From: Dehalococcoidales bacterium
Lineage (GTDB): Bacteria; Chloroflexota; Dehalococcoidia; Dehalococcoidales; UBA5627
NCBI GenBank assembly: GCA_041656115.1
Contig: JBBAED010000001.1
Span: 98,873-162,872 of the forward strand
Reading direction: 5' to 3'
Length of the DNA stretch: 64,000 bases
Positions 10,792 through 61,855 of the stretch are shown here, piece by piece. The notes beneath the pieces were generated by a model. The model had not been told where the DNA came from. It did not search any database and worked only from the letters and a program-made list of their open reading frames with translations. The position numbers and the translations under genes are program-made. How positions within the stretch are numbered: the stretch's first letter is position 1; each line of letters starts with the position of its first letter.

Positions 10792-12192
10792 CTACTTACC
10801 CGTCGCTTTCCGCGGCGTATAACTTCTCCCGGCTTCCACAAGCAGCGCCAGGCTCATCAAAAAATCATCGTGCCCTTGAGACGGATCAACAAAAAAGTTC
10901 ATCAATTGGTTGGGTCGATAAAAACTTCGTGCTTTCTCAATCTGTTCCCAAAATTCGGCGTATTCCGCAGACCCATCTCCTTGATACATCTTCAATCGTC
11001 CGGAATTAACGGCAGCCAGCAGATTAAAGCCCAATTGCGATTTGGAGCTTGAACTAAAGACAAAAGGGATAACCTTTGCTCCCAGCGCTTTTCTTAAAAA
11101 AGAGCTCACTGTCAGCCCGATACCGGTAGAATCAATTACAATCTTACGGCAGTTCCAGATATTGCCCAAAATATCGGCCAGCTGCGGATACAAATCGGTA
11201 TGCTTCTTACCGTTCCAACGATAATGTTCGACGATTTTAAGCCTCGGCTCGTTTTGTACACTGTCTAAAGCGGAATAATCAAGTTCACCTACGGTTATCA
11301 CCGTTGAATCCTGCTTCGGATTTAAGGTTTTTAGAAGATAATCTTCCGCCGCTTCACCGGCAATATCGACCCCCGCAACATAAACTTTGCCCCTCTCCGG
11401 CCGGTTTAACCTTTGATGGTTTCCCTGTAACTGTGCTCTTTGCTGTGCGTCCAGAAAACCGCCTCCTCCGCTAATCGGCAGTAGACGGTATTGAGTACGA
11501 AAAAGAGGATGATTTTCTCCGAGCCGCGCCCTTTCCGTTTCTATGTATTGCAGATAGTCAGGGTTATATTTTGCCACTTCCTGCCAATCGTAACGATAAT
11601 GCCGTTTAATTCCGTCTTTCTTTTCCAGTTCCAGATTATGTTGCTTGATTTCTTCAAGGAGTGTCTGCTCGTCCCAAGCGGTGCCGTAATGCACGGTGGT
11701 TACGTTGGTTGTACTGCCCATCGGTTTAAAGTCTTTGTTATATTTATCTTTGCCGATATCTTGCGATTCATCGATTTCCAGCAGTATATGAGCGGTATTC
11801 CCGACGACATTGGCCGATTCCTCTGCCGAAAGGAAAACAGCGCGGCAAAAACCCAGCCTGATAATATGCCCCTGCTCGGTTGTATAAATACCGGTAAAAC
11901 CGGCATCAATGAGCCTATCCTTGAGCCTTGACATTGAAATCAGCGCTTGCGGCTTAAAGGTCGGGGCGCACTTAATCAGATTTTTAGAGTTTGGCATAAA
12001 GATAGTCATCAACAGCAGTTCTATTTGTGCCGAAAGCTCATTCTTACCCCCTTGGCGTGCTATTTCCACCGAAAAGGTATGTCCTTTGCGATTCAAAACA
12101 CTCCCTAATACGGCGACGGCAATTTCTTTTTGATAGGGGCGTAATCTATTTATCAAATATCTTCCCGATGGTGATACCGAGCGGCAAGGCAA
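10792..12192 (-). CDS. terL: Phage terminase large subunit (ATPase + RNase H-like nuclease)
   Basis: Walker A-like ARQGGKNE, Walker B LLEIDESQD, then the C-terminal nuclease segments YVAGVDIAGE and DDFLMSLALL. The longest ORF starts at a TTG at 12192. An alternative TTG at 12156 would overlap the upstream stop by 11 nt. Confidence 0.8.
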   Translation of the reverse strand: MPCRSVSPSGRYLINRLRPYQKEIAVAVLGSVLNRKGHTFSVEIARQGGKNELSAQIELLLMTIFMPNSKNLIKCAPTFKPQALISMSRLKDRLIDAGFTGIYTTEQGHIIRLGFCRAVFLSAEESANVVGNTAHILLEIDESQDIGKDKYNKDFKPMGSTTNVTTVHYGTAWDEQTLLEEIKQHNLELEKKDGIKRHYRYDWQEVAKYNPDYLQYIETERARLGENHPLFRTQYRLLPISGGGGFLDAQQRAQLQGNHQRLNRPERGKVYVAGVDIAGEAAEDYLLKTLNPKQDSTVITVGELDYSALDSVQNEPRLKIVEHYRWNGKKHTDLYPQLADILGNIWNCRKIVIDSTGIGLTVSSFLRKALGAKVIPFVFSSSSKSQLGFNLLAAVNSGRLKMYQGDGSAEYAEFWEQIEKARSFYRPNQLMNFFVDPSQGHDDFLMSLALLVEAGRSYTPRKATGK

Positions 12193-12502
12193 TATCCCTT
12201 AAAACATTTGCAATCGCCTCTTTAAGCCCGCTTTTATCGTTTTTATCGATACTGTATCTGGTTCTGACCAAACCGCCGAGAGTGGTTAGAGCTTTCATAA
12301 TTAAATCCATATTTTCCGGGTCGTGCCTTAATACAGACTTAATTTTGGTTCGCAATAAGGCTATTTCATCGTCAATACCGTAAACGACGGTTGCCATTTC
12401 AAAATCATTTTGTTCATCTTCGTCAAGCACTCGCGAGTAAAAACCGTGCTTGCGAGCATATTGGTTGCCTATCGGTGCGCCTTTTCTTGTTCTTTCAGTC
12501 AA
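12146..12502 (-). CDS. Small terminase-like protein (GNxxAxKHGxYS motif)
   Basis: The N-terminal RKGAPIGNQYARKHGFYS is a motif I associate with phage small terminase/DNA-recognition subunits. Sits immediately upstream of and overlapping terL. AAGGAG lies 7 nt before the TTG start. Confidence 0.55.
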   Translation of the reverse strand: MTERTRKGAPIGNQYARKHGFYSRVLDEDEQNDFEMATVVYGIDDEIALLRTKIKSVLRHDPENMDLIMKALTTLGGLVRTRYSIDKNDKSGLKEAIANVLRDIALPLGITIGKIFDK

Positions 12503-12547: not shown

Positions 12548-12571
12548 ATAATAATAGCACATATGTTCTTA
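12548..12571 (-). promoter_or_regulatory. Shared operator/extended -10 element, copy T (upstream of the terminase operon)
   Basis: Read in gene orientation: TAAGAACATATGTGCTATTATTAT, ending 45 nt before the TTG start. It is 21/24 identical to the copy at 23245-23268. Contains the imperfect palindrome AGAACA-TA-TGTGCT and TGC-TATTAT. Confidence 0.6.
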
Positions 12572-12686
12572 GCATTATATGAAATATTGTCGTTATTTTG
12601 TGACTTTTGTCTGGTACAAGGTATTATTAATGTTGTATAATAACGTCATACACAGGGATGTATAAATTAATTTATGGAGGTTGTAC

Positions 12687-12842
12687 ATGAAAATTATTAC
12701 CCTTTGTGGCGAAAAGAGCTGCTGCCCGGTGGTAAAAATCGACGAAGAAAAGGTCGAAATCGGTGAAGAAGGAAACCTCTGCGTTCTGAAAAGAAGCGAA
12801 TGGGAGACCCTGAAAAAGAAAATTTTGGAGAATGAAGCCTAG
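12687..12842 (+). CDS. Small Cys-containing protein (51 aa), unknown function
   Basis: MKIITLCGEKSCCPVVKIDEEKVEIGEEGNLCVLKRSEWETLKKKILENEA. GGAGG lies 7 nt upstream of the ATG and a strong terminator follows. Below the size cutoff of the ORF track. Divergent from the terminase operon. Confidence 0.6.
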   Translation: MKIITLCGEKSCCPVVKIDEEKVEIGEEGNLCVLKRSEWETLKKKILENEA

Positions 12843-13838: not shown

Positions 13839-15536
13839 ATGCGCTTATCACAGTTATTCGGAAAGACTCAAAGGGAGATTCCGGCAGAAGCCGATACAGT
13901 CAGCCATCAACTGATGCTGCGTACCGGCATGATTCGCCAGCTTACCGCCGGTGTTTATTCGTATTTACCGTTGGCGCTTCGTGCGTTGTATAAAATAGAA
14001 AATATTATCAGAGATGAAATGGACAAAGCCGGCGGGCAGGAAATATGTATGCCGGTCTTACAACCGATTGAACTCTGGGAAAAATCGGGTAGGGTTAGCG
14101 GATTTGGGAAAAATCTGTTCCGCTTATATGACCGCAAAGAACGCGAATTGGCGCTGGGGCCCACTCATGAAGAAGTTGTGACCGATTTGGTTGGGCGCAC
14201 CGTTCAGAGTTACCGTGAACTGCCTTTGCTTTTATACCAAATCCAAACCAAATTCCGTGACGAACTGCGTCCCAGAGGCGGGCTGGTACGCGTACGTGAA
14301 TTTGTGATGAAAGACCTTTACAGTTTTGATACCGATGCCGAAGGGTTAGATATCAGTTACCGTAAAATGGTTACCGCTTACGAAAATATCTTTGCCAGAT
14401 GCGGGCTGCCGGTTATTATGATTGAAGCCGATAGCGGAGCAATCGGAGGCAAAGATTCCAATGAATTTATGGCCGTTTCCGAAATGGGCGAAGATGAAAT
14501 TATCTACTGCAAAAATTGCGGGAATGCCGCTAATGCCGAAAAGGCAAAAAGTATCAAACCCGAAGCCAACAACGGCGAACCGCTGGCGACGGAGGAAGTT
14601 GCCACCCCCGGTTGTAAAACTATCGCAGAAGTGTGTAACTACTTGGGAATCGAACCGATAAATACGTTAAAAGCCGTTTTCTATGTTGCCGACGAAGAAT
14701 TTATTTTTGTTTGTTTGCGCGGCGATATAGATGTAAACGAAGTAAAATTAAAGAACCTTTTACGCTGTGCCGAACTAAGGCTGGCAACCGAAGAAGAAGT
14801 TACCGCCAAAGGGATAGTTGCCGGATTTGCATCGCCAATCGGGCTCAAGAACGTGAAAGTTGTGGTTGATGAATCGGTTGGCGTCGGAACAAACTTTGTT
14901 GCCGGCGGCAATAAAACCGATTTTCATATTAAAAACGTCAACTTCCCCAGGGATTTTGAAGCTGATTTAATTGCCGATATTGCGCTGGCAGCCGTCGGTG
15001 ACGGTTGTGCAAAATGCGGTTTCGAATTATCTGTTGATCGCGGTATAGAGTTAGGGCATGTATTTAAACTGGGGACTTTCTTAAGCGAAAAGCTGGGAGC
15101 CTATTATATTGACGCAAACGGCGAATCAAAACCGATAGTGATGGGCTGTTACGGTATCGGTGTCGGCAGGTTAATGGCAGCCGCCATTGAGGTTAACCAT
15201 GACGATAAAGGCATTATTTGGCCTAAAAATATTGCCCCCTATCAGGTTCATATTTGCCCGCTATTTATGGAAAACTTACAAGTTGCCGAAAAAGCGGAGG
15301 AACTCTACAAAGAATTGGAACTCTGTGGCATAGAGGTACTTTACGATGACCGCAACGAATCTACCGGAATTAAATTTAACGATGCCGACCTTTTAGGAAT
15401 TCCGCTGCGAATTACCGTTAGCCCGCGTTCACTGGAAAAAGGGTGCATCGAAATAAAGCGGCGTTCGGAAAAAACGGCGGAGCTTATTCCCGTTAACGAA
15501 GCGATTGAAAAGGTTAAGGCAATACTGGCGGGCTAG
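13839..15536 (+). CDS. proS: Prolyl-tRNA synthetase, bacterial type with INS editing domain
   Basis: MRLSQLFGKTQRE, class II motifs (REFVMKDLYSFD, GCYGIGVGRL) and a central ~180-aa insertion. GGAG RBS. Confidence 0.95.
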   Translation: MRLSQLFGKTQREIPAEADTVSHQLMLRTGMIRQLTAGVYSYLPLALRALYKIENIIRDEMDKAGGQEICMPVLQPIELWEKSGRVSGFGKNLFRLYDRKERELALGPTHEEVVTDLVGRTVQSYRELPLLLYQIQTKFRDELRPRGGLVRVREFVMKDLYSFDTDAEGLDISYRKMVTAYENIFARCGLPVIMIEADSGAIGGKDSNEFMAVSEMGEDEIIYCKNCGNAANAEKAKSIKPEANNGEPLATEEVATPGCKTIAEVCNYLGIEPINTLKAVFYVADEEFIFVCLRGDIDVNEVKLKNLLRCAELRLATEEEVTAKGIVAGFASPIGLKNVKVVVDESVGVGTNFVAGGNKTDFHIKNVNFPRDFEADLIADIALAAVGDGCAKCGFELSVDRGIELGHVFKLGTFLSEKLGAYYIDANGESKPIVMGCYGIGVGRLMAAAIEVNHDDKGIIWPKNIAPYQVHICPLFMENLQVAEKAEELYKELELCGIEVLYDDRNESTGIKFNDADLLGIPLRITVSPRSLEKGCIEIKRRSEKTAELIPVNEAIEKVKAILAG

Positions 15537-15619
15537 CTCAGCCCGGCTTTTTCCGATTTTTTGTTATTTATTGCTATAATAAAGACCTAAACATTACAAA
15601 AAAGGATGGGGAAATATTT

Positions 15620-16105
15620 ATGTTTGCAATGTTTGCTAAATTAAAGAGATTTTTCTTCTCGGCATTAGTGGGAGCAATCGGAATCGGTGTGGCCGGAGTC
15701 CTTTTTGCATACCTCAACGGAATGGATGACGGGAGCACTTTGCTATGGATTTTGGGGTGGCTTCTGATTGGTTTTATTGTTAACGTTACCATCGGATTTG
15801 TGGTAAGCGGTAATAAACTGTCTAAGTTTGTAATGTGGGGTATTATCGCCGGTGTTGTGGCCGGATTCTTATCGGCTGACCCGAGTTATGACCTTTGGAT
15901 GAAAATGGGAATCATTGGGCTTACTCTCGGTATCGGAATCGGCATTGCCGGTGTTTCTTATACACCGCCGGCAGATAAAAAACCTGCACCGAAACAAAAA
16001 GAAGAGCCAAAAGATCCCAGAAATATCCCCTGTGATGAATGCGGTTCACTTGTAGCGGAAGACGACAACTTCTGCCACGAATGCGGCACCGAATTTGAAG
16101 AATAG
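15620..16105 (+). CDS. Membrane protein with C-terminal zinc ribbon
   Basis: About 4 predicted hydrophobic helices, a Pro/Lys-rich linker, then CDECGSLVAEDDNFCHECG. Confidence 0.6.
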   Translation: MFAMFAKLKRFFFSALVGAIGIGVAGVLFAYLNGMDDGSTLLWILGWLLIGFIVNVTIGFVVSGNKLSKFVMWGIIAGVVAGFLSADPSYDLWMKMGIIGLTLGIGIGIAGVSYTPPADKKPAPKQKEEPKDPRNIPCDECGSLVAEDDNFCHECGTEFEE

Positions 16106-16133
16106 CTTCTAAAAAAATAGAACAAAATGAAAA

Positions 16134-16166
16134 CGCCCTGCCGATAACCGACAGGGCGTAATTTTT
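16134..16166. terminator. Bidirectional terminator between convergent genes
   Basis: Stem CGCCCTG / CAGGGCG with an 11-nt loop. It is flanked by an A-run upstream and a T-run downstream. Confidence 0.65.
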
Positions 16167-16181
16167 ACCGAAACAAACCGA

Positions 16182-18578
16182 TTACGCTCTTAATGTTACC
16201 CCAAGTGCGCCTTGCAGTTTTTTCAGGATTTGCTCAAGGACTTTATCCACCGCGACATCGGTAAGCGTCTGCTCCGCGGATTGGAAAAGCAGTCTGTAAG
16301 CAACTGATTTTTTACCGGCCTCAACCTGCTTACCGGTATAAACATCAAAAAGGATTACTTCGTTTACCAAAGAAAACTTTTTAATGATATCGACAATCTG
16401 TTTATGGGTTACATTGTTATCCAAAACAAGGGCAATATCCCTAATCACGGACGGGAAACGAGCAATCGGTTTATAACCGCCGGAACGTAAAGCAAACGAG
16501 AGAAGCGTTGAAATATTCAGCTCAAACATAAAGATCTTCCCGGTAATATCAAAGGCCGCAGCCACCTTGGGGTGGACCTCTCCGAGAACACCGATTTTAC
16601 TGCCGCTAACAACAATTTCCGCCTGATGTCCGGGGCGTAAGCTGTCGTCGTCACTTGCTTTAAAATCCGCTCTGACATACAAAGAGGAAAGCAGGCTTTC
16701 CGCAACACCCTTTACCGTAAAGAAATCAAACGGCGGGGTATTAGTCGGCCAAACCTTTTCCTGCTCGGGATTATACATCAGCCCACAAAGGATTTCGGGT
16801 TCATTCGGCAGGTTATTATCACGCTTAATATAAATGCGATTCAGTTCAAAAATGCGTACCGGGCCTTCTTCGTGCCTTAAATTGGATTCCAATATCGCTA
16901 AAAGCCCGCTTCGTAAATTGGTGCGCAGATATTCTTGCTCGGCGCTCATTGCGTTGTACAATTTAACCGGTTCTTTTTGCAAAGCGTTTGAAGCATAAGC
17001 CTTCGCCAGCATTTCTACATTGGTTAAAGAATAGTTAATCACCTCATCAAAACCAAAACCGACTAAGGTTTGCCGTACACGGTTTTTGAGGTCCATCAAA
17101 TAGTTCGGCTCCTGATGAGCAATCGAACCGCTCAGAAGTGTAGTGGGAATATTTTCATAACCGATAATGCGTGCCAGCTCTTCGATAACATCAACTTCAA
17201 TATTGATATCGCTGCGCCAGCAAGGGGCTTTAACCGAATATTCACTGTCGGATTCGATATTAACCTCAAATCCCAGCCCTTTAAGCGTGGCAAGCACTTG
17301 TTCGTTACTGAATTCAACACCGAGAATGCGTTTTATTTCACTGCGGCGCAAAATCAAGGGCTTTTGTTCGTATTTTTGCGGATAGACATCTACAATTCCC
17401 TTTGCCGCACAGCCGCCCGCGATTTGCAATATCAGCTGAGTTGCGCGTCGCAGGGCGTAAACGGTTAAGTCGGGGCGAATCCCCCTCTCAAACCGCATAC
17501 TGGCTTCGCTCACAAGCTTTAGGCTATGACTGGTGTAATGAATACTTGCGGAATTGAAGTTAGCAGATTCGATTAGTATTGAAGCGGCATTTTCCGTTAT
17601 ATCGCTGTTTGCCCCGCCCATCACACCGGCAATCGCAACCGATTTTTCGCCGTCGGTAATCATTAATGTATTTTCGGTTAATTTACGCTCAACGTCGTCG
17701 AGTGTTCGGATAACTTCGCCACATTGGGCACGGCGAATAACTATTTTATTGGTTTTTATTTTATCGTAATCGAAACTGTGTAAGGGTTGCCCGTACTCCA
17801 ACATTACGTAGTTTGTAATATCAACGATATTACTGATTGGGCGAATACCGCAAGCCGTTAAACGCTGCTTAAGCCATTCGGGCGATTCCTCTATTTTGAC
17901 CCCGGTTATTAAACTTGCCGAATAGCGCGAGCATAAATCTTGGTCTGCGATTGATATTGAAACTTGCCCTTCTATCGCTTCACCGACTTCATCATAAGTT
18001 AAATCCGGTAGTTTCACTTTTTTATCGGTAATTGCCGCCACTTCCCAAGCAACACCGATTACGGACAGTAAATCGGGGCGGTTGGGGGTAACATCTATAT
18101 CAAGAATAATATCGGAAAGAAACTCGGCTAAACCTTTCCCTAAAGGTGCTTCCGGCGCCAATACCAAAATCCCCTCATGTTCATCGGATAAGCCCAGTTC
18201 TCTTTCGGAACAAACCATACCGCAGGATTCAACACCGCGAATCTTTGCCGGTTTTAGAATCGATTTTTCTCCGGTATATCCGTCAATCAAATTAGCGCCA
18301 ATCGATGCATAGGCAATTTTATCGCCGACGGTGAGGTTGGGGGCACCGCAAACTACTGTTTGCAGCCCGCTTCCGGTATCGACGGTGGCAAGTCTTAACC
18401 TATCGGCGTTGGGGTGGGGGTCAATAGCAGCAATTTGTCCGATAATAACGCCTTCCCAGCTTTCCCCGATATATCTGATTTCGGATTCGGTCCCCGACAT
18501 TGTCAGCGCATGTGCCAACTCTTTGGGGGATAAATCTATATCTACATAATCTTTAAGCCACTTAATAGGTATCTTCAT
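16182..18578 (-). CDS. pheT: Phenylalanyl-tRNA synthetase beta subunit
   Basis: 798 aa. N-terminal MKIPIKWLKDYV and a tRNA-binding OB domain (HPNADRL), then B3/4, B5 and FDX-ACB regions. Follows pheS with a 2-nt gap. Confidence 0.95.
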   Translation of the reverse strand: MKIPIKWLKDYVDIDLSPKELAHALTMSGTESEIRYIGESWEGVIIGQIAAIDPHPNADRLRLATVDTGSGLQTVVCGAPNLTVGDKIAYASIGANLIDGYTGEKSILKPAKIRGVESCGMVCSERELGLSDEHEGILVLAPEAPLGKGLAEFLSDIILDIDVTPNRPDLLSVIGVAWEVAAITDKKVKLPDLTYDEVGEAIEGQVSISIADQDLCSRYSASLITGVKIEESPEWLKQRLTACGIRPISNIVDITNYVMLEYGQPLHSFDYDKIKTNKIVIRRAQCGEVIRTLDDVERKLTENTLMITDGEKSVAIAGVMGGANSDITENAASILIESANFNSASIHYTSHSLKLVSEASMRFERGIRPDLTVYALRRATQLILQIAGGCAAKGIVDVYPQKYEQKPLILRRSEIKRILGVEFSNEQVLATLKGLGFEVNIESDSEYSVKAPCWRSDINIEVDVIEELARIIGYENIPTTLLSGSIAHQEPNYLMDLKNRVRQTLVGFGFDEVINYSLTNVEMLAKAYASNALQKEPVKLYNAMSAEQEYLRTNLRSGLLAILESNLRHEEGPVRIFELNRIYIKRDNNLPNEPEILCGLMYNPEQEKVWPTNTPPFDFFTVKGVAESLLSSLYVRADFKASDDDSLRPGHQAEIVVSGSKIGVLGEVHPKVAAAFDITGKIFMFELNISTLLSFALRSGGYKPIARFPSVIRDIALVLDNNVTHKQIVDIIKKFSLVNEVILFDVYTGKQVEAGKKSVAYRLLFQSAEQTLTDVAVDKVLEQILKKLQGALGVTLRA

Positions 18579-18580
18579 AA

Positions 18581-19624
18581 TTAAAACTGCCTCAAAAATC
18601 TAAGGTCGTTGCCGTAAAAGAGCCGTATGTCGTCTATTCCGTAACGTAACATCGGAATCCTTTCAATACCCATACCAAAAGCAAATCCGCTGTAAACGGT
18701 CGGGTCGATTCCAACCCCTTCCAAAACCCTCGGATGAACCATTCCGGCACCGAGTATCTCCAGCCAGCCGCTGTTACTACATACGCGGCAGCCGACACCT
18801 TTACAAACAATACATTCGATTGACATCTCCACACCGGGTTCAACAAACGGGAAGAAATCGCAGCGGAAACGTGCTTTGCGATCCGAACCGAAATAACGGC
18901 GGACAAATTCGTAAAGTGTGCCCTTTAAGTCTGCTAAAGTAATCCCTTTATCGACTGCCAATCCTTCAATTTGGGTAAACATTGGGATATGGGTGGCATC
19001 AATCGCCTCATATCTGTAAACCTTACCGGGAACAACAATCCGCAGCGGCGGCTCGATTTGCTCCATTACACGGACCTGCATCGGCGAGGTATGAGTCCTA
19101 AGAAGCATCGGCCGTTCGCCCTGTTCGTTCTCATAATCCACCCAAAGTGTCTGCATATTATCGCGCGCCGGATGTTCTTTGGGGATATTAAGCATATCGA
19201 AGTTATAACGGTCCCATTCTACTTCGGGGCCCTCGACAACCTGAAAACCCATCGAAATAAATATGCGGCACATTTCATCGATAACTTGTGAAATGGGGTG
19301 TAGCTGCCCAATCGGCGGCTTGCGCCCCGGCAGTGAGATATCAATGGCTTCTTCGCCTTTGGCGGAAACCATTTTTTCACCAAGCACGGTTTCTTTTTCT
19401 TTTAAGATGGCTTCCAGTTCCTGCTTAAGCTGATTGGCGCGACCGCCAACGGTCTTCTTTTCTTCAATAGATAAGGCTGCCAGCCCACGCAAGACCTCAT
19501 TAAGCCTGCTTTTTTTGCCCATATATTGAACCCGCCATAAATCCAGTTTTTTGTTGTCGTCTATGGCGTCAAGTTCGCAAACGGCTTGCTGTTTCAGTTC
19601 TTCCAGTTGTTCTAAAATACTCAT
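18581..19624 (-). CDS. pheS: Phenylalanyl-tRNA synthetase alpha subunit
   Basis: Class II motifs ([30 protein letters not shown]). The track ORF extends to 19762, but the extra 46 aa are not PheS-like. The start was chosen at [11 protein letters not shown] (ATG 19624). Confidence 0.9.
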
Positions 19625-19744
19625 TTTCTTTAATTCTTGCTTTGTTTTTATTTGAGGATTATATGCCATTGTGACTGGGAGGGTCAAATTCTGAGAGGTT
19701 TTGTTTAGAGTTATGTTGCTTTTTGTTGTCTTGGGCGCTCTTTT

Positions 19745-20502
19745 TATCATTCTGAGTACCATCTCATTTGTCTTTGCGAGCGCAGCGAAGCAATCTCTAA
19801 TAAATCAAGAGGTATTCATTTGTTGGAGATTGCCACGTCACTCGCCTAAAGGCTCGTTCCTCGCAAAGACGTTACTATTATTGTCATTCTGAGCTTGTCG
19901 AATAATCTGGGGGTTAGCGGATAGTGTAGTGTTCGGTAACGTATTTTAGGACAGGACTATGTCTCTTTTTTGATTCTGAGGGTACCTCATAGTCTATATT
20001 TCTCGTCCTCTTAGATCCTTCATTTCATTCAGGATGACAAAGAGGAAAAGCAAGGTGACAAAAAAAGCCCGTTCGCCCTGAGCTTGTCGAAGGGTCCAAC
20101 GAACGGGTGAAAACGAAGATTACCATCCGACCGCCGTTATGGTTCGACAGGCTCACCACGAACGGCTGAGGTATTTCTTTTTGTCTTTGCGAGTGCAGCG
20201 AAGCAATCTCTAATAAATCAAGAGGTATTCATTTGTTGGAGATTGCCACGTCACTCGCCTGACGGCTCATTCCTCGCAAAGACGTTTATAACTTGTCATT
20301 CTGAGCATAGCGAAGAATCTAGGGGTTAGCGAATAGTGCAGCGTTCGGCAATGGATTTTATGGTAGGACGATGCCTCTTTCGTAATTCCGAGGCAACCTA
20401 ATAGCCTACATTTCCCGTCCTCTTAGATCCTTCATTTCATTCAGGATGACAAGGGCGAGATTGCCATGTCACTTGCCTAAAGGCTCACTCCTCGCAAAGA
20501 CA
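19745..20502. repeat. Intergenic modular repeat array 4 (minus orientation)
   Basis: Reverse complements of modules D, A, Y, Z, D, A, Y and A. Examples are AGATTGCCACGTCACTCGCC...CCTCGCAAAGAC, TTCCCGTCCTCTTAGATCCTTCATTTCATTCAGGATGACAA and GGTTCGACAGGCTCACCACGAACGG. Confidence 0.95.
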
Positions 20503-23045: not shown

Positions 23046-23244
23046 TAATTTCCTCCCCAATAAAATTCTCGACAATCAATTCTTGTGTTTTATATCTGTT
23101 TTTGTTGTTATACAGAATAAACGTATGAGCCTTTTTTGTCAAGCTAATCCATACGTAATTAATAACGTCCGCGGCTATAAAAAGTTACCTTTTTGGCAAT
23201 AATATTTTTTGCCGTCCGCTTGTGACAGGACGTTATTGACCTAT

Positions 23245-23268
23245 TTAGAACATTTGTGCTATTTTTAT
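23245..23268 (+). promoter_or_regulatory. Shared operator/extended -10 element, copy H (upstream of the head operon)
   Basis: TTAGAACATTTGTGCTATTTTTAT, ending 50 nt before the ATG at 23319. TTGACC at 23236-23241 lies 18 nt upstream of TATTTT. 21/24 identical to copy T. Confidence 0.6.
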
Positions 23269-23318: not shown

Positions 23319-23639
23319 ATGGATATAGATTTACCCGCTAACGCTGAGTCGGACCCGCTCCCCGAAAATTACCATTACAGAGATGAAGGCTGCGAGCTCG
23401 CCAATTCCTGCTTAAACTGCCCTTTCCCGCAATGCGTTCTCGAGGAAACGGGCGGAATAAGGAAGTTTCTCAAGGAACAGCGAAACAATGAAATTATAAT
23501 CCTCTATAACAACGAAAAAAGGGATGTTAAGGAACTGGCGGTTATCTTTAAATTAAGCGTACGCACTATCCAAAGGGCGCTCGCAAACCGACGGCAAGCA
23601 CACCTGAGCACAACTCGAAAGGAGACCAATGACAAATAA
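23319..23639 (+). CDS. Cys4 + helix-turn-helix protein (phage-type regulator or DNA-recognition subunit)
   Basis: C-x5-C-x2-C-x4-C cluster (GCELANSCLNCPFPQC), then an HTH (DVKELAVIFKLSVRTIQRAL). Overlaps the portal gene start by 11 nt. Confidence 0.5.
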   Translation: MDIDLPANAESDPLPENYHYRDEGCELANSCLNCPFPQCVLEETGGIRKFLKEQRNNEIIILYNNEKRDVKELAVIFKLSVRTIQRALANRRQAHLSTTRKETNDK

Positions 23640-25011
23640 CAATTTTAACCCGCAGGTTTTGGAGCAAACGGATTTAACACGGGTTCATAACTATCGCCGA
23701 ATGCTGGATTTCTATAACGGCAACCAATGGCAAACGGGGAATGCTTACGGTGAAAAACAGCTTTCTTTTAACTATGCGCGGGCGGTTATTGATAAGACGA
23801 CCGCTTATATGATGGCCGGAGCCTATTGCAAAGCGGATGCTTCGGATGACACCAAAGAGGCAAGGGATAAAGCCGCCGCTGCGGAGAGGGTTTTGGGGCA
23901 AATATATGCCGATAATCGCTTGGAGCAGCTTGATTTCGATACCGAGACCGATTGCGCCATATTGGGAGATGCCTGTTATAAAGTAACTTGGGATACGGCA
24001 AATAAACGTGTAAGAATCACCGCCCCCGATGTATCCGGTATTTACGCTTGGTGGCCGGGCGACGACAGCTCCAAAATATGGCGTGTTGCCTCCCAATATA
24101 GCCTTAGCGCCGATGAAAGCGCCATGCTTTACGGCGTTAAGGTAAAAGAGAAAGCGGTAAAAATAACCGAAGTTTGGACGGAAAATCTCTTTGAATTATG
24201 GGTGGATAATAACCTGATTGAAAAGAAAATTAACCCCTACGGGTTTATACCGTTTGTTATTTTCCCAAACTTGCGCGAGCCCAAAAAGTTTTGGGGGAAA
24301 TCGGATATTACCCAACTGGCGGAACCTCAATGCGAACTGAACCGTGCCATAAGCCAGCTTGCGCGCATACTGGAACTTTCCGGTAATCCGATTGCGGTTT
24401 TGGAGAATGTGGAGGAATCCGAAGATATTGCGGTCAGCCCGGGGGCGGTTTGGAACATTCCCGAAGAAGCCAAGGCTTACCTGTTGGATTTATTACAGGG
24501 GGGTGGAGTCAACTTGCATATTGAGTATATTAACCTGCTTTACCGTACTTTGCATGACCTCGGCGAATCGCCGCGCGCCACATTCGGCACTACGTCCGGC
24601 AATACCTCGGGGGTCGCATTGGAAATTGAAATGCAACCCCTTTTGCAAAAAGTCTGGCGTAAAAGGCTGATTCGCAACACCGTCTACTGCGAACGCAACA
24701 GGCTTGCATTAAAACTCTTTTCCAAATACACGGGAGAGGATTTCGGTAATTTAAACTTGCGTATGGTTTGGAGCCCCGTGCTTCCGCGCGATATGGCAGG
24801 ACTGGCGGCAAACGAACAAATACTGGTTCAAAACGGAATCCATTCCAGGCGTACCGCAATGTCGCAAATCGGTATTAAGCACCCCGATTCCGAATTTAAC
24901 GATTGGCTTACGGAAAGAGCCTCCATTCTAAAAATGAATAACGAAAACAATCCAAGAACCGCCGGCAAAACGCGAGAGAGGGCAATAAGCGCTGCAAATG
25001 AAGGATTTTAA
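23629..25011 (+). CDS. Phage portal protein (SPP1 gp6-like)
   Basis: 460 aa. N-terminal YRRMLDFYNGNQW resembles the YYxGxH/Q signature of SPP1-type portals. Sits in the canonical position before scaffold and capsid, translationally coupled on both sides. Confidence 0.7.
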   Translation: MTNNNFNPQVLEQTDLTRVHNYRRMLDFYNGNQWQTGNAYGEKQLSFNYARAVIDKTTAYMMAGAYCKADASDDTKEARDKAAAAERVLGQIYADNRLEQLDFDTETDCAILGDACYKVTWDTANKRVRITAPDVSGIYAWWPGDDSSKIWRVASQYSLSADESAMLYGVKVKEKAVKITEVWTENLFELWVDNNLIEKKINPYGFIPFVIFPNLREPKKFWGKSDITQLAEPQCELNRAISQLARILELSGNPIAVLENVEESEDIAVSPGAVWNIPEEAKAYLLDLLQGGGVNLHIEYINLLYRTLHDLGESPRATFGTTSGNTSGVALEIEMQPLLQKVWRKRLIRNTVYCERNRLALKLFSKYTGEDFGNLNLRMVWSPVLPRDMAGLAANEQILVQNGIHSRRTAMSQIGIKHPDSEFNDWLTERASILKMNNENNPRTAGKTRERAISAANEGF

Positions 25012-25489
25012 GATTACAGCAGAGGTAAACAAATTGAGTAAATCAGACCAAATACAAACAGAAGATATCTTGCAAGAGGAATCCGAAAAAGATGATTTGA
25101 ACGACCTAAAAGCAAAACTCGGCGAAGCGGAAAAGATATCCGCCGGAAAAGAACTCAAAATAAATGCGCTGGAAAGGGAAATTGCCGACTTGGCAAAAAG
25201 GCACCGGGAGGCTGAAAACAAACTGGCCGATGCGGTATCAAACTATAAAACTTTGGCAATCGGTAATCACGCCGAAATACCGGCGGAGCTGGTGGGCGGG
25301 GCAAGTATTGAGGAAATTAACAACTCCTTAATCAGCGCCAAAATATTGGTCGATAAAATCAGGCGCGGGCTGGAAAACGAGGTAATGGCAACGCAGATTC
25401 CGATTGGCGCGCCGGTAAGAAGGGATTTTGATATATCAGGTCTGTCGCCGATTGAGAAAATTAAATACGCAATGAATAAGAGTAAGTAA
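24998..25489 (+). CDS. Scaffolding-like coiled-coil protein
   Basis: 163 aa, highly charged heptad-rich sequence (EESEKDDLNDLKAKLGEAEK...). Position between portal and capsid. Confidence 0.6.
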   Translation: MKDFKITAEVNKLSKSDQIQTEDILQEESEKDDLNDLKAKLGEAEKISAGKELKINALEREIADLAKRHREAENKLADAVSNYKTLAIGNHAEIPAELVGGASIEEINNSLISAKILVDKIRRGLENEVMATQIPIGAPVRRDFDISGLSPIEKIKYAMNKSK

Positions 25490-25582
25490 ATCCGTTTGCG
25501 GAGCACGTTATGGATAGTCCGAAGAGGCTTAACAAATCTGCAGCGGTCAACAATAAATCAGTTAAAAAGGAGAAATAATTTA

Positions 25583-26503
25583 GTGGCTTTAACATTAACC
25601 GAAGCATCAAAATTATCAAATGATATGTTAATACGCGGAGTGGCGGAAACCGTTATTAAAGATTCGCCGATACTGCAAAAACTGCCTTTTATCGAAGTGA
25701 TGGGTAACAGCTTGACCTATAACCGTGAAAACACTCTGCCCGGTATTGATTTTTACGATGTCGGGGAATCTTGGAAAGAATCCACTCCCACCTTTGAACA
25801 GAAGACTGCCACATTAAAAATAATCGGCGGCGATGCCGATGTGGATAACTTCTTAAAGGCGACACGCAGTAATATTCAAGATTTGGAAGCTGCCGTAATC
25901 GAAATGAAAGCCAAAGCGTTACGGCATAAATTCGAAGAAATTTTTATCTACGGGGATTCGGAGTTGAACGCAAAGCAGTTTGACGGTATCCGTAAGCTGA
26001 TTGATACGGAAACAGAAAGTAATCGGGTAATTTCGGTATCGGCAACGGGCGGTTCCCTGACGCTGGACTGCTTGGATGAACTTATTGATGCCGTAAAGGG
26101 TGATAAGCCGGATATGCTGCTAATGAGCCGTCGTTTAAGGCGCAAAATCAATTCATTGGTGAGAGGCACCGGCAGTATGCTGGCAACCGAATCCGATAAC
26201 TGGGGTAATTTTATTCAACTGTGGGACGGGATTCCGATTGGGGTTAACGACTGGATTTTAGATACGCATATCGTGGAAGACGGGGTGGAAACGGCAGTAA
26301 TCGGCGGAGGGTGTTCTACTATTTATGCACTCCAATTCGGAGAAGGAGCGCTCTGCGGTCTTTCCGGGCCGGGATTTTTACAGGTGGAATCGCTTGGGCA
26401 GCTTGAAAACAAAGATGCCTCGCGCACACGCGTCAAGTGGTATTGTTCCATGGCGCTCTTTTCATCGGTTAAGGCGGCGGCTCTGATTGGGGTTAAGGAT
26501 TAG
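25583..26503 (+). CDS. Putative major capsid protein (HK97-fold inferred)
   Basis: About 306 aa from GTG 25583, which has AAGGAG 8 nt upstream. The track ORF begins at a TTG at 25496. The call rests on size and position after the scaffold; the fold is not verifiable by eye. Confidence 0.6.
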   Translation: MALTLTEASKLSNDMLIRGVAETVIKDSPILQKLPFIEVMGNSLTYNRENTLPGIDFYDVGESWKESTPTFEQKTATLKIIGGDADVDNFLKATRSNIQDLEAAVIEMKAKALRHKFEEIFIYGDSELNAKQFDGIRKLIDTETESNRVISVSATGGSLTLDCLDELIDAVKGDKPDMLLMSRRLRRKINSLVRGTGSMLATESDNWGNFIQLWDGIPIGVNDWILDTHIVEDGVETAVIGGGCSTIYALQFGEGALCGLSGPGFLQVESLGQLENKDASRTRVKWYCSMALFSSVKAAALIGVKD

Positions 26504-26512
26504 GACAGAATT

Positions 26513-27505
26513 GTCTTTGCGAGGAACGAGTGTTTAGCGAATGATGTGGCAATCTAGCTCTTGTCATCCTGAACGAAGTGAAGGATCTAAGAGGACAGAA
26601 ACACAGGCTATGAGGCGTCTTCTGCAACAAAAAAGAGGCATCGCTCTATCGTATAAAGAGTAACCGAACTGTACACTATTCGCCAACCCCTAGATTCTTC
26701 GGCAGGCTCAGAATGACAAAGGAGGAGTCTACAACGACAAAAAGGAAGCCCTAGCCGTTCGTGGTGAGCTTGTCGAACCATAACGGCGGTCGAACAGTAA
26801 TCCTCGTTTCTTCCCGTTCGTGAGACCCTTCGACAGGCTCAGGGCGAACAAGTTTTTTAACGTCTTTGCGAGGAGTGAGCCGTTAGGCGAATGACGTGGC
26901 AATCTCGCTTTTGTCATCCTGAATGAAATGAAGGATATAAGAGGACGGGAAATATAGGCTATGAGGCATCCTCAGAATTATAAAAGAGGAATCGCTCTAC
27001 CGTATAAAGAGCACCCGAACGGTGGACTATTCGTCGACTCCCAGATTCTTCGGCAAGCTCAGAATGACAATACTAGGAATGCCCCAGCCGTTCGTGGTGA
27101 GCTTGTCGAACCATAACGGCGGTCGAACAGTAATTCTTGTTTCTCCCCGTTCGTGGAACCCTTCGACAAGCTCAGGGCGAACGAGTTTTTTAACGTCTTT
27201 GCGAGGAGAGAGCCGTCAGGCGAATGACGTGGCAATCTCACCCTTGTCATCCTGAATGAAATGAAGGATCTAAGAGGACGGGAAGCACAGGCTATTAGGT
27301 GACCTCGGCAATAAAAAAGTGGCATCGCTCTATCGTATAAAGAGTAACCGAACACTGCACTATTCGTTAACCCCTAGATTCTTCGGCAGGCTCAGAATGA
27401 CAATAGTAGAAACGTCTTTGCGAGGAGTGAGCCGTCAGGCGAATGACGCGGCAATCTCCTACGAATTTATTAGAGATTGCTTCGCTGCGCTCGCAAAGAC
27501 AAAGG
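26513..27505. repeat. Intergenic modular repeat array 5, inside the phage-like operon (A, Y, Z, A, Y, Z, A, Y, A-D; plus orientation)
   Basis: The largest array at ~1 kb. It has three near-tandem A-Y(-Z) super-units. Confidence 0.95.
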
Positions 27506-28239
27506 AAATTGCTCGTCTTTCCGGTCAGGAACGGACTCGCAAAGACACAGAAAACAGAGCGTCCGAAGCAGGAGAACTTGCAAAAACAAAGGAGGAAAAC
27601 AAAACGACATTAACCAAACTTAAAGAATACGTCAGAATCGATTTGCACGATAACGACTCAAATAACTACCGCTGGGATGACAGCGAGATAGAAAGGCACA
27701 TCTTACACGCCACAAACGACCTTTCAATCGCCATTCCGCTGCAACGAACAGCAACAATCCCAACAACCGGCGGCTCAAGAGATGTTGATATTTCGCAAAT
27801 TACGGATAGGATTTCAATCTATGCGGCAGGATATCCGCTTCATCTCTTCCCGCGTTATTATCGCCGCTTTATAGTTAATACTAACGTACTCACGCTTACG
27901 GACGGGCCTGTTCCCAACGGTGAGAATATCTGCATCTACTATAAAAAAGCATATTCCGTAACCGAGGCAGAATCCGAAATCCCGTCGCATTTGGAAGAAT
28001 TGGTTATTTGCGGCGCTTGCGGGTACGCCGCCGTGGAGCTGGCAATCTATTCCGTAAACCGGATTAACACCGGCGGCGATTATACCGCCAAAGAATTCCT
28101 GCGCTGGGGTGAAGCGAAAATCAATTATTTTCGAGGCGAGCTAAAGAAACGAGGCCATAACAACCGTTTACGCATAAACCGTTTGTACAGAGCCTATCAG
28201 TTACCTTTCCCGAAAATATCGGCGGTTAAGCAATTTTAA
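27319..28239 (+). CDS. Phage-like structural protein (possible head completion/adaptor), 5' end uncertain
   Basis: The non-repeat part begins about 27590 (TLTKLKEYVRIDLHDND...IERHILHATNDL), which resembles the start of gp6-like head-tail connectors. The N-terminal ~60 codons of the track ORF are repeat-derived. AAGGAGG at 27588-27594 is not followed by an in-frame ATG, GTG or TTG. Confidence 0.45.
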   Translation: MASLYRIKSNRTLHYSLTPRFFGRLRMTIVETSLRGVSRQANDAAISYEFIRDCFAALAKTKEIARLSGQERTRKDTENRASEAGELAKTKEENKTTLTKLKEYVRIDLHDNDSNNYRWDDSEIERHILHATNDLSIAIPLQRTATIPTTGGSRDVDISQITDRISIYAAGYPLHLFPRYYRRFIVNTNVLTLTDGPVPNGENICIYYKKAYSVTEAESEIPSHLEELVICGACGYAAVELAIYSVNRINTGGDYTAKEFLRWGEAKINYFRGELKKRGHNNRLRINRLYRAYQLPFPKISAVKQF

Positions 28240-28253
28240 CCGCCGACCGCTAA

Positions 28254-28490
28254 TTATTTCTTTGTTGTAAATACAACGGCAAAGAGAATCATTACCAATA
28301 TGACACAAAGGGCATTTAATAAACCGGCAATCGCATTGCCGCCGATAAAACTGTCGGCGAACAGCAGTAAACTGCCGGCTCCGTAAAAGATAGGCAGCAG
28401 TAAGTTAACCGATTTATCTTTCCTGGATATCACCTGATAAATCTGAACAATCCAACCGGCAAAGATAAACAAAAATCCAAAATATAACAT
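28254..28490 (-). CDS. Small 3-TM membrane protein (holin-like topology, speculative)
   Basis: 78 aa with three hydrophobic segments and a basic C-terminus (TTKK). GGAGG RBS (the plus strand shows CCTCC at 28503-28507). Confidence 0.45.
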   Translation of the reverse strand: MLYFGFLFIFAGWIVQIYQVISRKDKSVNLLLPIFYGAGSLLLFADSFIGGNAIAGLLNALCVILVMILFAVVFTTKK

Positions 28491-28619
28491 TGTGTTGCCA
28501 ACCTCCTTTTACGTATCCTAAAATCCGGCCGATATTCGGGATGTTCCAAATGTATCGGCCAGAAGCATTATATACAAAAACAATAATAATAAACAATTGC
28601 AACTAAAGGAAACTATTTT

Positions 28620-28886
28620 ATGAATATTTATAAAGCAATTTGGAAGGTTATCGGCGGCAGGCCGTGGACATATATTTTGCGTGATATTTGGCATAAATAC
28701 GAAGGCTTATGCATTATCGGGCTGGTGACAATCGGTATATTTCTGGGGCATTGGCTAAGGCCTCACTTACTTTGGATGTTTTTAACTTTTACATCGGGAT
28801 ATATTGCCGGACACCTCTTTTGGGGCAAGGAGTATATTCCCAATCAGAAAGGAGACGAACAAGCGGATGATAAATCTGACCGATAG
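28620..28886 (+). CDS. Small membrane protein
   Basis: 88 aa with two hydrophobic helices and an acidic C-terminal tail. Overlaps the next gene by 20 nt. Confidence 0.45.
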   Translation: MNIYKAIWKVIGGRPWTYILRDIWHKYEGLCIIGLVTIGIFLGHWLRPHLLWMFLTFTSGYIAGHLFWGKEYIPNQKGDEQADDKSDR

Positions 28887-57900: not shown

Positions 57901-58166
57901 ATGTAATCCTCAATTATTCTTTAGACGTTATAAAAAACAAAAGCACCCAAACCTTTTCGGTCGGTATGCAAATTATTAACAATTTAAAGAAGGCTCTGAG
58001 TTTTAACTATTAAAGACACTAAAAAACGGTAGCGCAGCCACCGCCCTTTAGCGCCGTTATTTCTTTTCGAGAAACATAACCGGCTTGCAGCCCATTTAAG
58101 ACACCTCTTTCAGGCTAACGCCTCATAGTATAGCGAATAATTAAGTAGTTAGCAAATTAAGGATTT

Positions 58167-58191
58167 ATTGGCCGAGATTGCGAAGATTTAA
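58167..58191 (+). repeat. Direct repeat DR-L bounding the low-GC DGQHR segment
   Basis: ATTGGCCGAGATTGCGAAGATTTAA, 23/25 identical to 59931-59955. Confidence 0.8.
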
Positions 58192-58397
58192 TAGAGGATG
58201 CTTTCGATTTTGAAATATTTAAAAGAAACGGAAAGTTGATGATAAATAAGACATTTATGCTGGGAAAAGCAGTTCTGTGTTATGCGAACGATAAGAAAAG
58301 ACCTGGGTGTAATATTTATTAAATGCAATAGATTGTGCGATATTATAATCTGAGGTTGAACAAGTAAAATGGTGTTTTCTTGTAAACGAAAATCTAA

Positions 58398-58652
58398 TTA
58401 TTCAACAGTTTCTATGTTATAACCCAATGTTTCCCCTAGTATTATACATCCCTCCAGTAAATCATTATATTTATTTTCTGACAATGTTATGCCTTTTTTT
58501 GAAGGAAAGTATTCTTCTCTGTCTTTTCCCATAAAGAAGATTCGAATATCAATATATTTTGTACCTTTGTATTCATTTAGCATTATTCGAATCTGTTCCT
58601 TGGAATTCTTTTGGAATGAATGGATTAAAATCCCAAACTCTTCGCTTTCCAT
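58398..58652 (-). CDS. PC4/YdbC-like ssDNA-binding protein
   Basis: 84 aa. IRIMLNEYKGTKYIDIRIFF...PSKKGITLSENKYNDL matches the bacterial PC4 (transcriptional coactivator p15-like) pattern. Confidence 0.6.
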   Translation of the reverse strand: MESEEFGILIHSFQKNSKEQIRIMLNEYKGTKYIDIRIFFMGKDREEYFPSKKGITLSENKYNDLLEGCIILGETLGYNIETVE

Positions 58653-58723
58653 TTCACATCCTCCACATAAAACAATAGTGGGGAAACATCCCCCACTATT
58701 GTACCACTGGCTATACTGAAACT

Positions 58724-59794: not shown

Positions 59795-59886
59795 TTTATC
59801 CTCCTGATCAACATATTATTTTTTTAGATCAAGATTATTATATAACTGATCATTAGGTTTGTCAAGTATTAAAGATCATTTTTTGA

Positions 59887-59915
59887 ACAAATTTTCAACA
59901 TTGAAAAGAATTTGT
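59887..59915. promoter_or_regulatory. Palindromic operator-like site upstream of the DGQHR gene
   Basis: Perfect palindrome TTTTCAA-CA-TTGAAAA (59892-59907) embedded in ACAAATT...AATTTGT. It lies 93-121 nt upstream of the start codon at 59794. Confidence 0.45.
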
Positions 59916-59930
59916 CACTCTAATTAGTTA

Positions 59931-59955
59931 ATTGGCCGGAATTGCGAAGATTTAA
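59931..59955 (+). repeat. Direct repeat DR-R bounding the low-GC DGQHR segment
   Basis: ATTGGCCGGAATTGCGAAGATTTAA. See DR-L. Confidence 0.8.
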
Positions 59956-61102: not shown

Positions 61103-61137
61103 GGAATAGATCTGTTTTTGATTGTAAAAGCTTTTTG

Positions 61138-61839: not shown

Positions 61840-61855
61840 TTATGTAGTTCTCCAA

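Follow-up and report, generated by a model that had tools for sequence, protein, structure and literature searches.

A shared promoter element with a putative LexA operator precedes the packaging and head operons of a candidate gene transfer agent-like element in Dehalococcoidales

Why do two phage-like operons, located 10.7 kb apart on opposite strands of a bacterial chromosome, carry nearly the same promoter sequence, and which protein reads it? This question is raised by a 64-kb stretch of DNA from a Dehalococcoidales bacterium (contig JBBAED010000001.1, positions 98,873 to 162,872; hereafter the window), in which a 24-nt element precedes both a packaging operon (a terS-like gene followed by terL) and a head operon starting with the gene of a cysteine-rich helix-turn-helix (HTH) protein, here termed the Cys4-HTH protein. 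The two operons are separate loci with aminoacyl-tRNA synthetase genes between them. Based on comparison with related loci, the element is very probably a functional shared promoter-operator, whichever protein binds it, and co-regulation of the packaging and head operons is strongly supported. The evidence leans towards a core that represents a LexA operator overlapping an extended -10 promoter, through which both operons of a gene transfer agent (GTA)-like element would be co-induced.

Two copies of the element in the window

Direct reading of the sequence located two 24-mers that are identical at 21/24 positions, as described in an earlier sequence-only reading of this DNA. The copies and the promoter parts they contain are as follows.

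12548..12571, minus strand: terS-operon copy of the 24-nt element, TAAGAACATATGTGCTATTATTAT
12570-12555, minus strand: putative operator core of the terS copy, AAGAACATATGTGCTA (from sequence)
12561-12558, minus strand: TGTG of the terS promoter, positions -17 to -14, extended -10 (from sequence)
12556-12551, minus strand: -10 hexamer TATTAT of the terS promoter (from sequence)
23245..23268, plus strand: head-operon copy of the 24-nt element, TTAGAACATTTGTGCTATTTTTAT
23236..23268, plus strand: head-operon promoter, TTGACC-18-TATTTT with TG
23236-23241, plus strand: -35 hexamer TTGACC of the head promoter (promoter scan)
23246-23261, plus strand: putative operator core of the head copy, TAGAACATTTGTGCTA, inside the 18-nt spacer (from sequence)
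23255-23258, plus strand: TGTG of the head promoter (from sequence)
23260-23265, plus strand: -10 hexamer TATTTT of the head promoter (promoter scan)

The distances to the downstream genes first reported were also correct, namely 45 nt from 12548 to the TTG start at 12502 and 50 nt from 23268 to the ATG start at 23319. Transcription is predicted to start near 12544 from the terS copy, which lacks a TTGAC -35, and near 23272 from the head promoter. No further copy was found in the window, as already noticed: a degenerate 24-mer with up to three mismatches matched just these two sites, and the 14-nt core AGAACANNTGTGCT was not found again as an exact match. Since the chance expectation for the degenerate 24-mer was 0.00 (100 dinucleotide-preserving shuffles, both strands, 64 kb), the two copies are not a product of chance.

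Conservation across relatives and specificity

In all fetched related loci (numbered L001 onwards), terS and HTH genes were anchored by tblastn, the 300 nt upstream of each gene were searched, and the core was counted as present at 11 or more of 14 matches to TAGAACA-NN-TGTGCTA. It was detected upstream of 124/134 terS genes and of 110/119 HTH genes, representing approximately 92% of loci for both operon types and 226 unique sequence contexts (124 + 102). The element that had been described as common to the packaging and head operons of the window is thus conserved 5' of both in orthologous loci, and among the 226 unique sites TAGAACA and TGTGCTA are both near 2 bits per position. Chance similarity or a recent, functionless local duplication is a negligible explanation for the pair: zero copies were expected, the flanks beyond the promoter are unrelated, and the idea is refuted by the recurrence of the core at these unique sites in genomes whose proteins are only 45–80% identical.

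The 'identical position' originally ascribed to the two copies holds in the window clade, but across relatives the spacing differs, with median distances of 141 nt from core to terS and of 70 nt from core to the HTH gene. Between promoter and terS, a small conserved open reading frame (ORF) of about 35-40 amino acids (aa; MRLLRLAVExQRWDLAAHTIVLATA...) was observed in 115 loci (e.g., L013, L028 and L066); it was lost in the window clade. A long 5' untranslated region or riboswitch before terS in other species was rejected, as the approximately 140 nt encode this small ORF.

Regarding specificity, the pattern GAAC-N4-GTNC was sought in the chromosomal neighbourhoods of about 80 genomes (1.24 Mb in total). 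Within the two promoter zones 109 occurrences were counted (G 92, A 11, T 6), whereas the 45 occurrences outside were scattered over all four bases and had no conserved flanks; the motif is not common at unrelated positions, so that one of the refuting outcomes named beforehand did not occur. The element-type core TAGAACANNTGTGCTA occurred 199 times in 2.28 Mb of related DNA. Furthermore, a metagenome scan with GACAAA-N13-19-AGAACANNTGTGCTA yielded at least 120 loci. Among the matches listed, the downstream gene was terS in 57 cases and the HTH gene in 43, eight were too short, and 15 were classified as 'other'. Several of the latter precede a divergent terS (L242) or the small pre-terS ORF (L190, L230). 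L246 has the same -35-region sequence as L190 and L230, yet its first downstream ORF is unrelated. In L208 (about 7000-7606, minus strand) and L237 the architecture, upstream box (see below) included, precedes a SocA/Panacea antitoxin gene and its 152-aa partner; in L171 and L243 it drives a small RNA (sRNA)-like gene, about 85 nt long and equipped with a terminator, and in L162, L200 and L173 it stands before leaders without assigned gene that hold a boxA-like sequence, CTTTAACAA. The architecture is nearly, not strictly, exclusive to the phage-derived element, and its sharing by a few non-element genes points to a host-encoded factor.

The promoters of the antitoxin pair, the sRNA-like gene and the leaders may be further members of the same regulon. 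An rRNA-leader function of the promoters with the boxA-like CTTTAACAA was considered and rejected, as Rfam detected no rRNA and only a fluoride riboswitch, signal recognition particle RNA and tRNA nearby.

Promoter architecture and the upstream box

The right part of the element, TGTGC-TAWTNT, is recognisable from its sequence as an extended -10 promoter of the sigma-70 type. TGn and, for Gram-positive bacteria, TRTG or -16 motif are names for this extended -10 element. The window copies read TGTGC-TATTAT and TGTGC-TATTTT, with TG one base 5' of the -10 and with A-11 and T-7 present. The initial interpretation of TGC-TATTWT as extended -10-like agrees with the consensus among relatives, TGTGCTAWTMT, and with the TG-containing TTGACC-18-TATTTT of the head copy.

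Two promoter classes were distinguished. The head class (consensus aAAaaa.GACAAAAtactgTTGAC.gtA.TAGAACATATGTGCTA.TcT) features a consensus -35, TTGAC, and an 18-nt spacer. The terS class (consensus aaaa.g.GACAAAAcc...TaGccata.TAGAACAtaTGTGCTAtTAT) is devoid of TTGAC, which had gone unnoticed in the sequence-only reading; it features a conserved TAGCC/TAGTC/TGGTC at the -35 position and a better -10 than the head class. In the window clade (window, L003, L007, L009, L010) CATATAAT takes the place of the TAGCC box. The geometry of the core across spacer and extended -10 is the same in 102 head and 124 terS promoters. As a separate observation, the TAGCC/TAGTC/TGGTC box of the terS class (L011-L086, L138-L257) may be an activator site.

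Moreover, about 24 nt 5' of the core and near -50, promoters of both classes contain a further box, YGACAAAA, which is preceded by an A-tract and is conserved as strongly as the core itself. The shared conserved region is consequently longer than the 24 nt originally delimited; the box was overlooked because it is degenerate in the window:

12585-12591, minus strand: terS upstream box GACAATA (degenerate), about 14 nt upstream of the -35 position
23224-23230, plus strand: head upstream box GACAGGA (degenerate), consensus YGACAAAA

YGACAAAA resembles the -35 of lexA in this lineage, TTGACAAAA. Candidate roles are an UP-like element, a vestigial -35 or a site for the Cys4-HTH protein.

These features raise the question whether a repressor has to be assumed at all. 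The conserved 50 bp could constitute a special strong promoter composed of an UP-like A-tract plus GACAAAA, a -35, a spacer element and the extended -10, which would be retained because it permits high expression. TGTGCTAWTAT is a good extended -10, GACAAAA has the lexA-like appearance mentioned above, the A-rich tract upstream is UP-element-like, and a few unrelated genes have the same layout. Nevertheless, a promoter of this kind without repressor is considered very unlikely, given that spacer sequence rarely reaches a conservation of about 2 bits per position, that TAGAACA is a LexA half-site in this lineage, that just two of the many promoters in the window carry the element, and that constitutive strong expression of capsid and terminase would be costly. 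The left half TAGAACA plays no part in the promoter and lies in the spacer, where sequence is usually free, yet it is as conserved as the -10, which argues that a protein reads it. In comparison with known extended -10 or TRTG promoters of the sigma-A type, the element likewise has TGTG-n-TAWTNT, and its terS class is predicted to work without a recognisable -35, of which extended -10 promoters are capable; it differs by the extra box near -50 and by the highly conserved spacer upstream of TG, explained by the putative operator which the spacer holds. Other known motifs were compared by eye and rejected because spacing or conserved bases do not fit: the controlling inverted repeat of chaperone expression (CIRCE), the NrdR box, the sigma-54 -24/-12 promoter, the GAAC-type -35 of extracytoplasmic function (ECF) sigma factors and the -10 sequences of sporulation sigma factors.

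LexA as candidate repressor

The Gram-positive LexA (Cheo) box is GAAC-N4-GTTC. The same box has reportedly also been found for LexA of Dehalococcoides ethenogenes. In order to find lexA, all fetched related DNA was searched by tblastn with E. coli and B. subtilis LexA as probes. One lexA was found, in L170, where it is transcribed away from the head operon. The 150 bp separating lexA from the head operon in L170 contain the head promoter, CATTGACGCTGGCAGAACATTTGTGCTACTTTT, and a second core, i.e., one core per promoter. The second core lies 20-40 nt before the lexA start, where the lexA strand reads TTGACA, 17 nt, TAAAGT, then AGCACAGATGTTCG. L262 and L263 repeat this arrangement (divergent lexA-head coordinates: L170 877-1933; L262 4556-5636; L263 3317-4397). 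In the L170/L262 clade the lexA operator is TAGCACA-GA-TGTTCG, featuring the same G/C variant half (GCAC/GTGC), and the head core of L262 is variant in both halves.

With L170 LexA as query, six further Chloroflexota lexA loci (L258-L261, L264, L265) were obtained, encoding LexA proteins about 70% identical to that of L170. Their promoters are composed of TTGACAAA(A), 17 nt, TAAAGT and then TAGAACA-NN-TGTTCG, a sequence found in 2.28 Mb of related DNA at lexA and nowhere else; the lineage lexA operator is TAGAACAGATGTTCG. The element consensus equals this operator at 11/14 specified positions, comprising the whole left half including the TA flank and the inner TGT..C. The earlier suggestion of LexA gains from this shared TAGAACA left half with its TA flank in the lexA promoters, while we infer the identity of the repressor from the match of sites. 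As to the proposed check of the lexA boxes for variant half-sites, the GCAC/GTGC variant is present in the L170/L262 clade; the six other lexA promoters have TGTTCG. In these LexA proteins, those of the element-bearing L170, L262 and L263 included, the cleavage site (Ala-Gly) and the catalytic residues Ser and Lys are retained. The recognition helix reads SSTSVASYNL in the clade with the variant operator (L170/L262) versus SSTSVVDYNL.

The two halves of the core behave differently. The left half is the canonical GAAC in about 98% of sites, whereas the right half is GTGC in 204/226, GTAC in 10 and GTTC in 4; both window copies are GAAC-N4-GTGC. In most sites G instead of T can be understood from its double use as the -14 G of the extended -10. 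A Gram-positive LexA binds operators in which one half-site is good and the other degenerate, and derepression sets in earlier at weaker operators (PMC4234289). Taken together, LexA is the favoured candidate for the repressor, as judged from the operator match.

Several observations weigh against this reading. No lexA was found in the 64-kb window, and lexA shares a contig with the phage-derived element only in L170, L262 and L263. Of lexA, recA and other SOS genes, lexA alone was detected in the vicinity of the element, in the L170 clade. G occupies the right half in 204/226 sites where the lexA operators of the lineage have T, and in B. subtilis the matching position matters for binding. Perfect palindromes account for just 4/226 cores. 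Moreover, 10 A-variant cores (without TG) and 5 flipped cores (GTAC-N4-GTTC) retain one imperfect half; as they are imperfect without making TG, the extended -10 constraint is not the sole explanation; a weak operator may have been selected for, or the binder may be asymmetric. The sample of lexA operators is small, comprising six canonical ones and one variant clade. Furthermore, YGACAAAA and the TAGCC box of the terS class are not explained by LexA. Among RNA runs, none was found to contain the window, and the peat metatranscriptomes of the study from which L043 originates contained no L043 sequence.

Some of these points would suit another host regulator. This might be a paralogue of LexA, or LexA itself assisted by a small co-factor, as known from phage GIL01, and the inducing signal could then differ from the classical SOS response. 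The conservation of a non-canonical half-site, the additional conserved boxes YGACAAAA and TAGCC, and the presence of the architecture at the SocA/Panacea antitoxin operon, the sRNA-like gene and the leaders are in line with such a factor. It is rated as quite unlikely here, since no candidate protein was identified and the lexA operators are the simplest match.

Returning to LexA, the following mechanism is proposed. LexA would occupy TAGAACA-NN-TGTGCTA, which spans about -30 to -13 in both promoters, and would thereby block RNA polymerase; the operator would consist of a canonical left half and a right half with one T->G exchange. Upon DNA damage, activated RecA would induce self-cleavage of LexA, and both operons would be released together. 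The head operon, featuring a good -35, should fire unaided. The Cys4-HTH protein, as first head product, might then help the terS promoter that lacks a -35 or bind YGACAAAA, which is speculative. As deduced from gene content, the product would be a small podovirus-like DNA-packaging particle. The initial proposal that one repressor occludes both promoters is accordingly retained for common control, the core lying over spacer and extended -10 in both operons, while binding by LexA is kept as a prediction.

The Cys4-HTH protein and a small cysteine-rich ORF

The strongest local competitor for the site is the Cys4-HTH protein, which had also been named as possible repressor. It contains C-x5-C-x2-C-x4-C followed by a three-helix HTH, and its gene is the first head-operon gene in all loci. 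In the AlphaFold model the HTH alone is confident, and the cysteine cluster has a predicted local distance difference test (pLDDT) score below 50. The window protein matched phrog_836, late transcriptional activator, weakly (expectation value E 0.002). Over 14 family members, Pfam assigned HTH_28 to 13/14, Sigma70_r4_2 to 10/14 and Mor to 9/14; for Mor, the window protein remained below the cut-off (E 0.095) and the best of the 14 members reached E 3e-4. A Foldseek search with the model returned generic HTH and sigma region 4 matches that were not significant (E ~1), and a sequence search of the PDB with the protein gave no informative match.

The family comprises 72 database relatives, all from metagenomes or metagenome-assembled genomes, and the named ones belong to Dehalococcoidales or Chloroflexota. 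Matches in IMG/VR were mostly short contigs of the same chromosomal cluster. The distant IMG/VR loci L131 and L134-L137 have no motif at the HTH gene, which does not discriminate between LexA and the HTH protein. The strict cysteine cluster CHYRDEGC-x5-C-x2-C-x4-C ahead of the HTH is reminiscent of Fe-S or Zn sensor regulators.

Accordingly, the core could be the operator of the Cys4-HTH protein, acting as repressor or as Mor/C-like activator in autoregulation and terS-terL control, with the likeness to LexA sites being convergent or coincidental. The invariable first place of the gene in every head operon, the weak likeness to late activators (phrog_836, Mor) and the fold resembling sigma region 4 (not significant) are compatible with this, and the lasting asymmetry of the site would suit a binder other than LexA. 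Yet chance would hardly produce identity to the lexA operator at 11/14 specified positions, the location between -35 and -10 suits a repressor and is unusual for an activator, and the occurrence of the architecture at a few genes outside the element favours a host factor. Moreover, the GCAC operator variant coincides with the changed LexA helix, whereas the HTH recognition helix of the L170/L262 clade, SQRTIQRVL, is close to the family consensus SxRTIQRAL. Direct control by the Cys4-HTH protein is therefore regarded as unlikely, though it is a serious competitor, and from its sequence the protein is a candidate second-tier regulator or alternative operator binder.

A second local protein had been proposed as regulator, namely the 51-aa cysteine-rich ORF (MKIITLCGEKSCCPVV...) at window 12687-12842 on the plus strand, divergent from terS. 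It is 92-96% conserved beside terS in L003, L007 and L010, and lies about 4 kb off in L027, L030 and L065. This proposal was not borne out, as the ORF has no domain match or DNA-binding signature and adjoins terS in the window clade only.

Genomic setting and phage-derived genes

Which genes would the shared element control, and are they part of a prophage? The window is Dehalococcoidales chromosome rather than prophage. The genes of the two phage-like loci and the host genes between them are as follows.

10792..12192, minus strand: large terminase gene terL, 466 aa (Terminase_6C and terL PHROGs)
12146..12502, minus strand: terS-like small protein, 118 aa, TTG start (phrog_1889 terminase small subunit, weak, E 1.4e-5)
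13839-15536, plus strand: proS, host gene between the loci
15620-16105, plus strand: zinc-ribbon protein, host gene between the loci
16182-18578, minus strand: pheT, host gene between the loci
18581-19762, minus strand: pheS, host gene between the loci
23319..23639, plus strand: cysteine-rich HTH protein, 106 aa, ATG start 23319, first head-operon gene
23629-25011, plus strand: portal (SPP1_portal, E 4e-26)
24998-25489, plus strand: scaffold-position protein, 163 aa (operon position)
25496-26503, plus strand: major capsid (head) protein (phrog_212, E 3e-69)
27319-28239, plus strand: SU10-adaptor-like protein (domain/PHROG match)
28804-30864, plus strand: 686-aa protein, function unassigned, last of the listed head/particle genes (23629..30864)

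The first calls of terL, a weak terS-like ORF, portal and major head protein were borne out by these Pfam and PHROG matches. In the window clade the terS-like gene is the first gene of the packaging operon, with an AAGGAG Shine-Dalgarno sequence 7 nt 5' of its TTG start (12502), and it is kept directly upstream of terL in nearly all related loci. The phage-like part of the window is limited to two short stretches, i.e., terS-like/terL and the plus-strand head operon. The guanine-plus-cytosine (GC) content across the phage-like genes is uniform at about 45%, and no genes for an integrase, replication, lysis or a long tail could be recognised in the 64-kb window.

On the upstream side, Pfam identified mraZ, mraW, ftsA, ftsZ, nrdR, class II ribonucleotide reductase and a radical-SAM protein. 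The two element copies enclose proS, the zinc-ribbon protein, pheT, pheS and an 830-aa TIG/Ig protein, and the downstream side comprises yqeY, ispG, rseP, dxr, cdsA, uppS, frr and pyrH, followed by purine-salvage genes, phoU and a V-type ATPase operon. Since the host genes at 13839..19762 separate the two phage-like loci, the phage-derived element is split and chromosomal. The first interpretation as a prophage was replaced accordingly by that of a split, order-wide, domesticated phage-like element amid essential genes.

Three side observations concern the neighbourhood. The 830-aa TIG/Ig-domain protein (20583-23075, minus strand) is located directly upstream of, and divergent from, the head operon; such a neighbour is also present in L003 and L004 (821 aa), and it could be an unrelated surface protein or a particle accessory. 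Low-GC islands (33-39% GC) at window 42345-44000 and 58000-64000 are probably defence islands. The first encodes a fusion of a DNA methylase with an Mrr/inactive restriction-endonuclease domain; in the second, genes for a DndB-like and a PD-(D/E)XK protein are accompanied by one for a 504-aa protein that contains a sigma-70 region 4 domain.

An order-wide GTA-like element

In order to determine the distribution of the element, a terL alignment was scanned against one genome per species. Relatives were detected in at least 445 species genomes, including the complete 2.3-Mb chromosome CP070842.1. The best 80 terL relatives show 65-80% identity, and every one of them carries the label Dehalococcoidales, Dehalococcoidia, Dehalococcoidaceae or Chloroflexota. 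The head cluster spans about 8 kb and has a fixed order, namely HTH gene, portal, 162-aa protein, capsid, small genes, adaptor, ~668-aa and 70-aa protein; gene order in L001, L003 and L005 matches the window. The neighbours of the head operon vary, being dnaJ, gpsA, plsY and der in L001 and L005, and TIG, terS-terL and pheST in L003; the head operon of the window adjoins pheST/TIG as in L003. The distance from terS-terL to the head operon ranges from less than 1 kb to more than 10 kb among loci, and orientation varies as well.

L133 (1-5154) represents a high-GC variant in which terL, HTH gene and portal are contiguous without an intergenic promoter. A core-like site, TTGACGAGGATAGAACGTATGTCCTATTAT, lies between its portal and capsid genes, and this locus may be nearer to the ancestral phage arrangement.

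Two characteristics of GTAs were found here: head and packaging genes are embedded in the chromosome without integration, replication or lysogeny modules (no integrase in 64 kb), and intact genes occur clade-wide in varying host contexts, indicating vertical inheritance. A set of intact, conserved genes that is split, stands in varied context and lacks mobility genes typifies domesticated, phage-derived particles of the GTA kind. The two operons are thus a candidate domesticated, split, phage-derived GTA-like element inherited across Dehalococcoidales, whose particle function is predicted from its genes. In the literature searched, no prior description of a Dehalococcoidales GTA-like element was found.

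Comparison with known systems

The core resembles Gram-positive SOS boxes in being a 14-16-bp dyad with a perfect left half, (T)AGAACA, and an inner CA..TG, and in overlapping the core promoter. It differs from them by the right half GTGC in about 90% of sites, the mismatch being located at the TG of the extended -10.

Known GTAs include RcGTA of Rhodobacter capsulatus, the Caulobacter GTA and BaGTA of Bartonella. The Dehalococcoidales element shares with them the possession of phage-derived head and packaging genes, the lack of genes for replication or integration, clade-wide vertical inheritance and a location at more than one locus among host genes. Apparent host regulation is a further likeness, and the element-linked HTH regulator is possibly GafA-like in its role. 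In contrast, the Dehalococcoidales element resides in Chloroflexota, encodes a podovirus/SU10-like capsid and adaptor, and is known from its genes alone. Moreover, LexA acts indirectly on RcGTA, whereas in Dehalococcoidales a LexA-type operator appears to lie directly in both structural promoters.

The Bacillus thuringiensis phage GIL01 uses host LexA as its repressor together with the small co-factor gp7. Here, too, phage-derived genes would be under host LexA at non-canonical boxes, and a small element protein could modulate LexA; GIL01 is a replicating plasmid prophage, whereas the Dehalococcoidales genes are chromosomal and split, and no homologue of gp7 was found, no search aimed at one having been made. 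Mor and C of phage Mu, both small and with the HTH at the C-terminus, activate promoters without a -35. Weak Pfam Mor matches (9/14 Cys4-HTH members, best E 3e-4) constitute the likeness to this group, and the N-terminal cysteine cluster of the Cys4-HTH family is not a known feature of Mor/C. From GTAs and from LexA-controlled phage elements such as GIL01, which it resembles, the system differs in its phylum, its split two-operon layout amid essential genes and the putative operator in the promoters of structural genes.

Significance for Dehalococcoidales

Dehalococcoidales are slow-growing, genetically intractable anaerobes that are important in organohalide bioremediation and abundant in sediments and aquifers. 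Gene exchange among them, for example of reductive dehalogenase genes, is poorly understood. The comparison of sites suggests that these bacteria probably switch on a GTA-like particle via the SOS response. A more far-reaching interpretation, namely an undescribed, vertically inherited, order-wide GTA-like particle in two loci whose operons are wired to the SOS repressor, with the imperfect half-site providing a low threshold and a cysteine-cluster HTH protein as second tier that activates the terminase promoter devoid of a -35, is offered tentatively and is less likely than not. If true, Chloroflexota would gain their first GTA-type system, which would also be the first to carry a LexA operator directly within its structural promoters.

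One sequence would serve here as repressor half-site and as extended -10, and its 226 evolutionary replicates reveal which positions may vary. Furthermore, a conserved phage-like packaging machine with a testable on-switch represents a candidate mechanism of horizontal transfer in this order. The phage-like element would also offer a natural pair of DNA-damage-inducible promoters, and may possibly be usable as a delivery vehicle for genetics.

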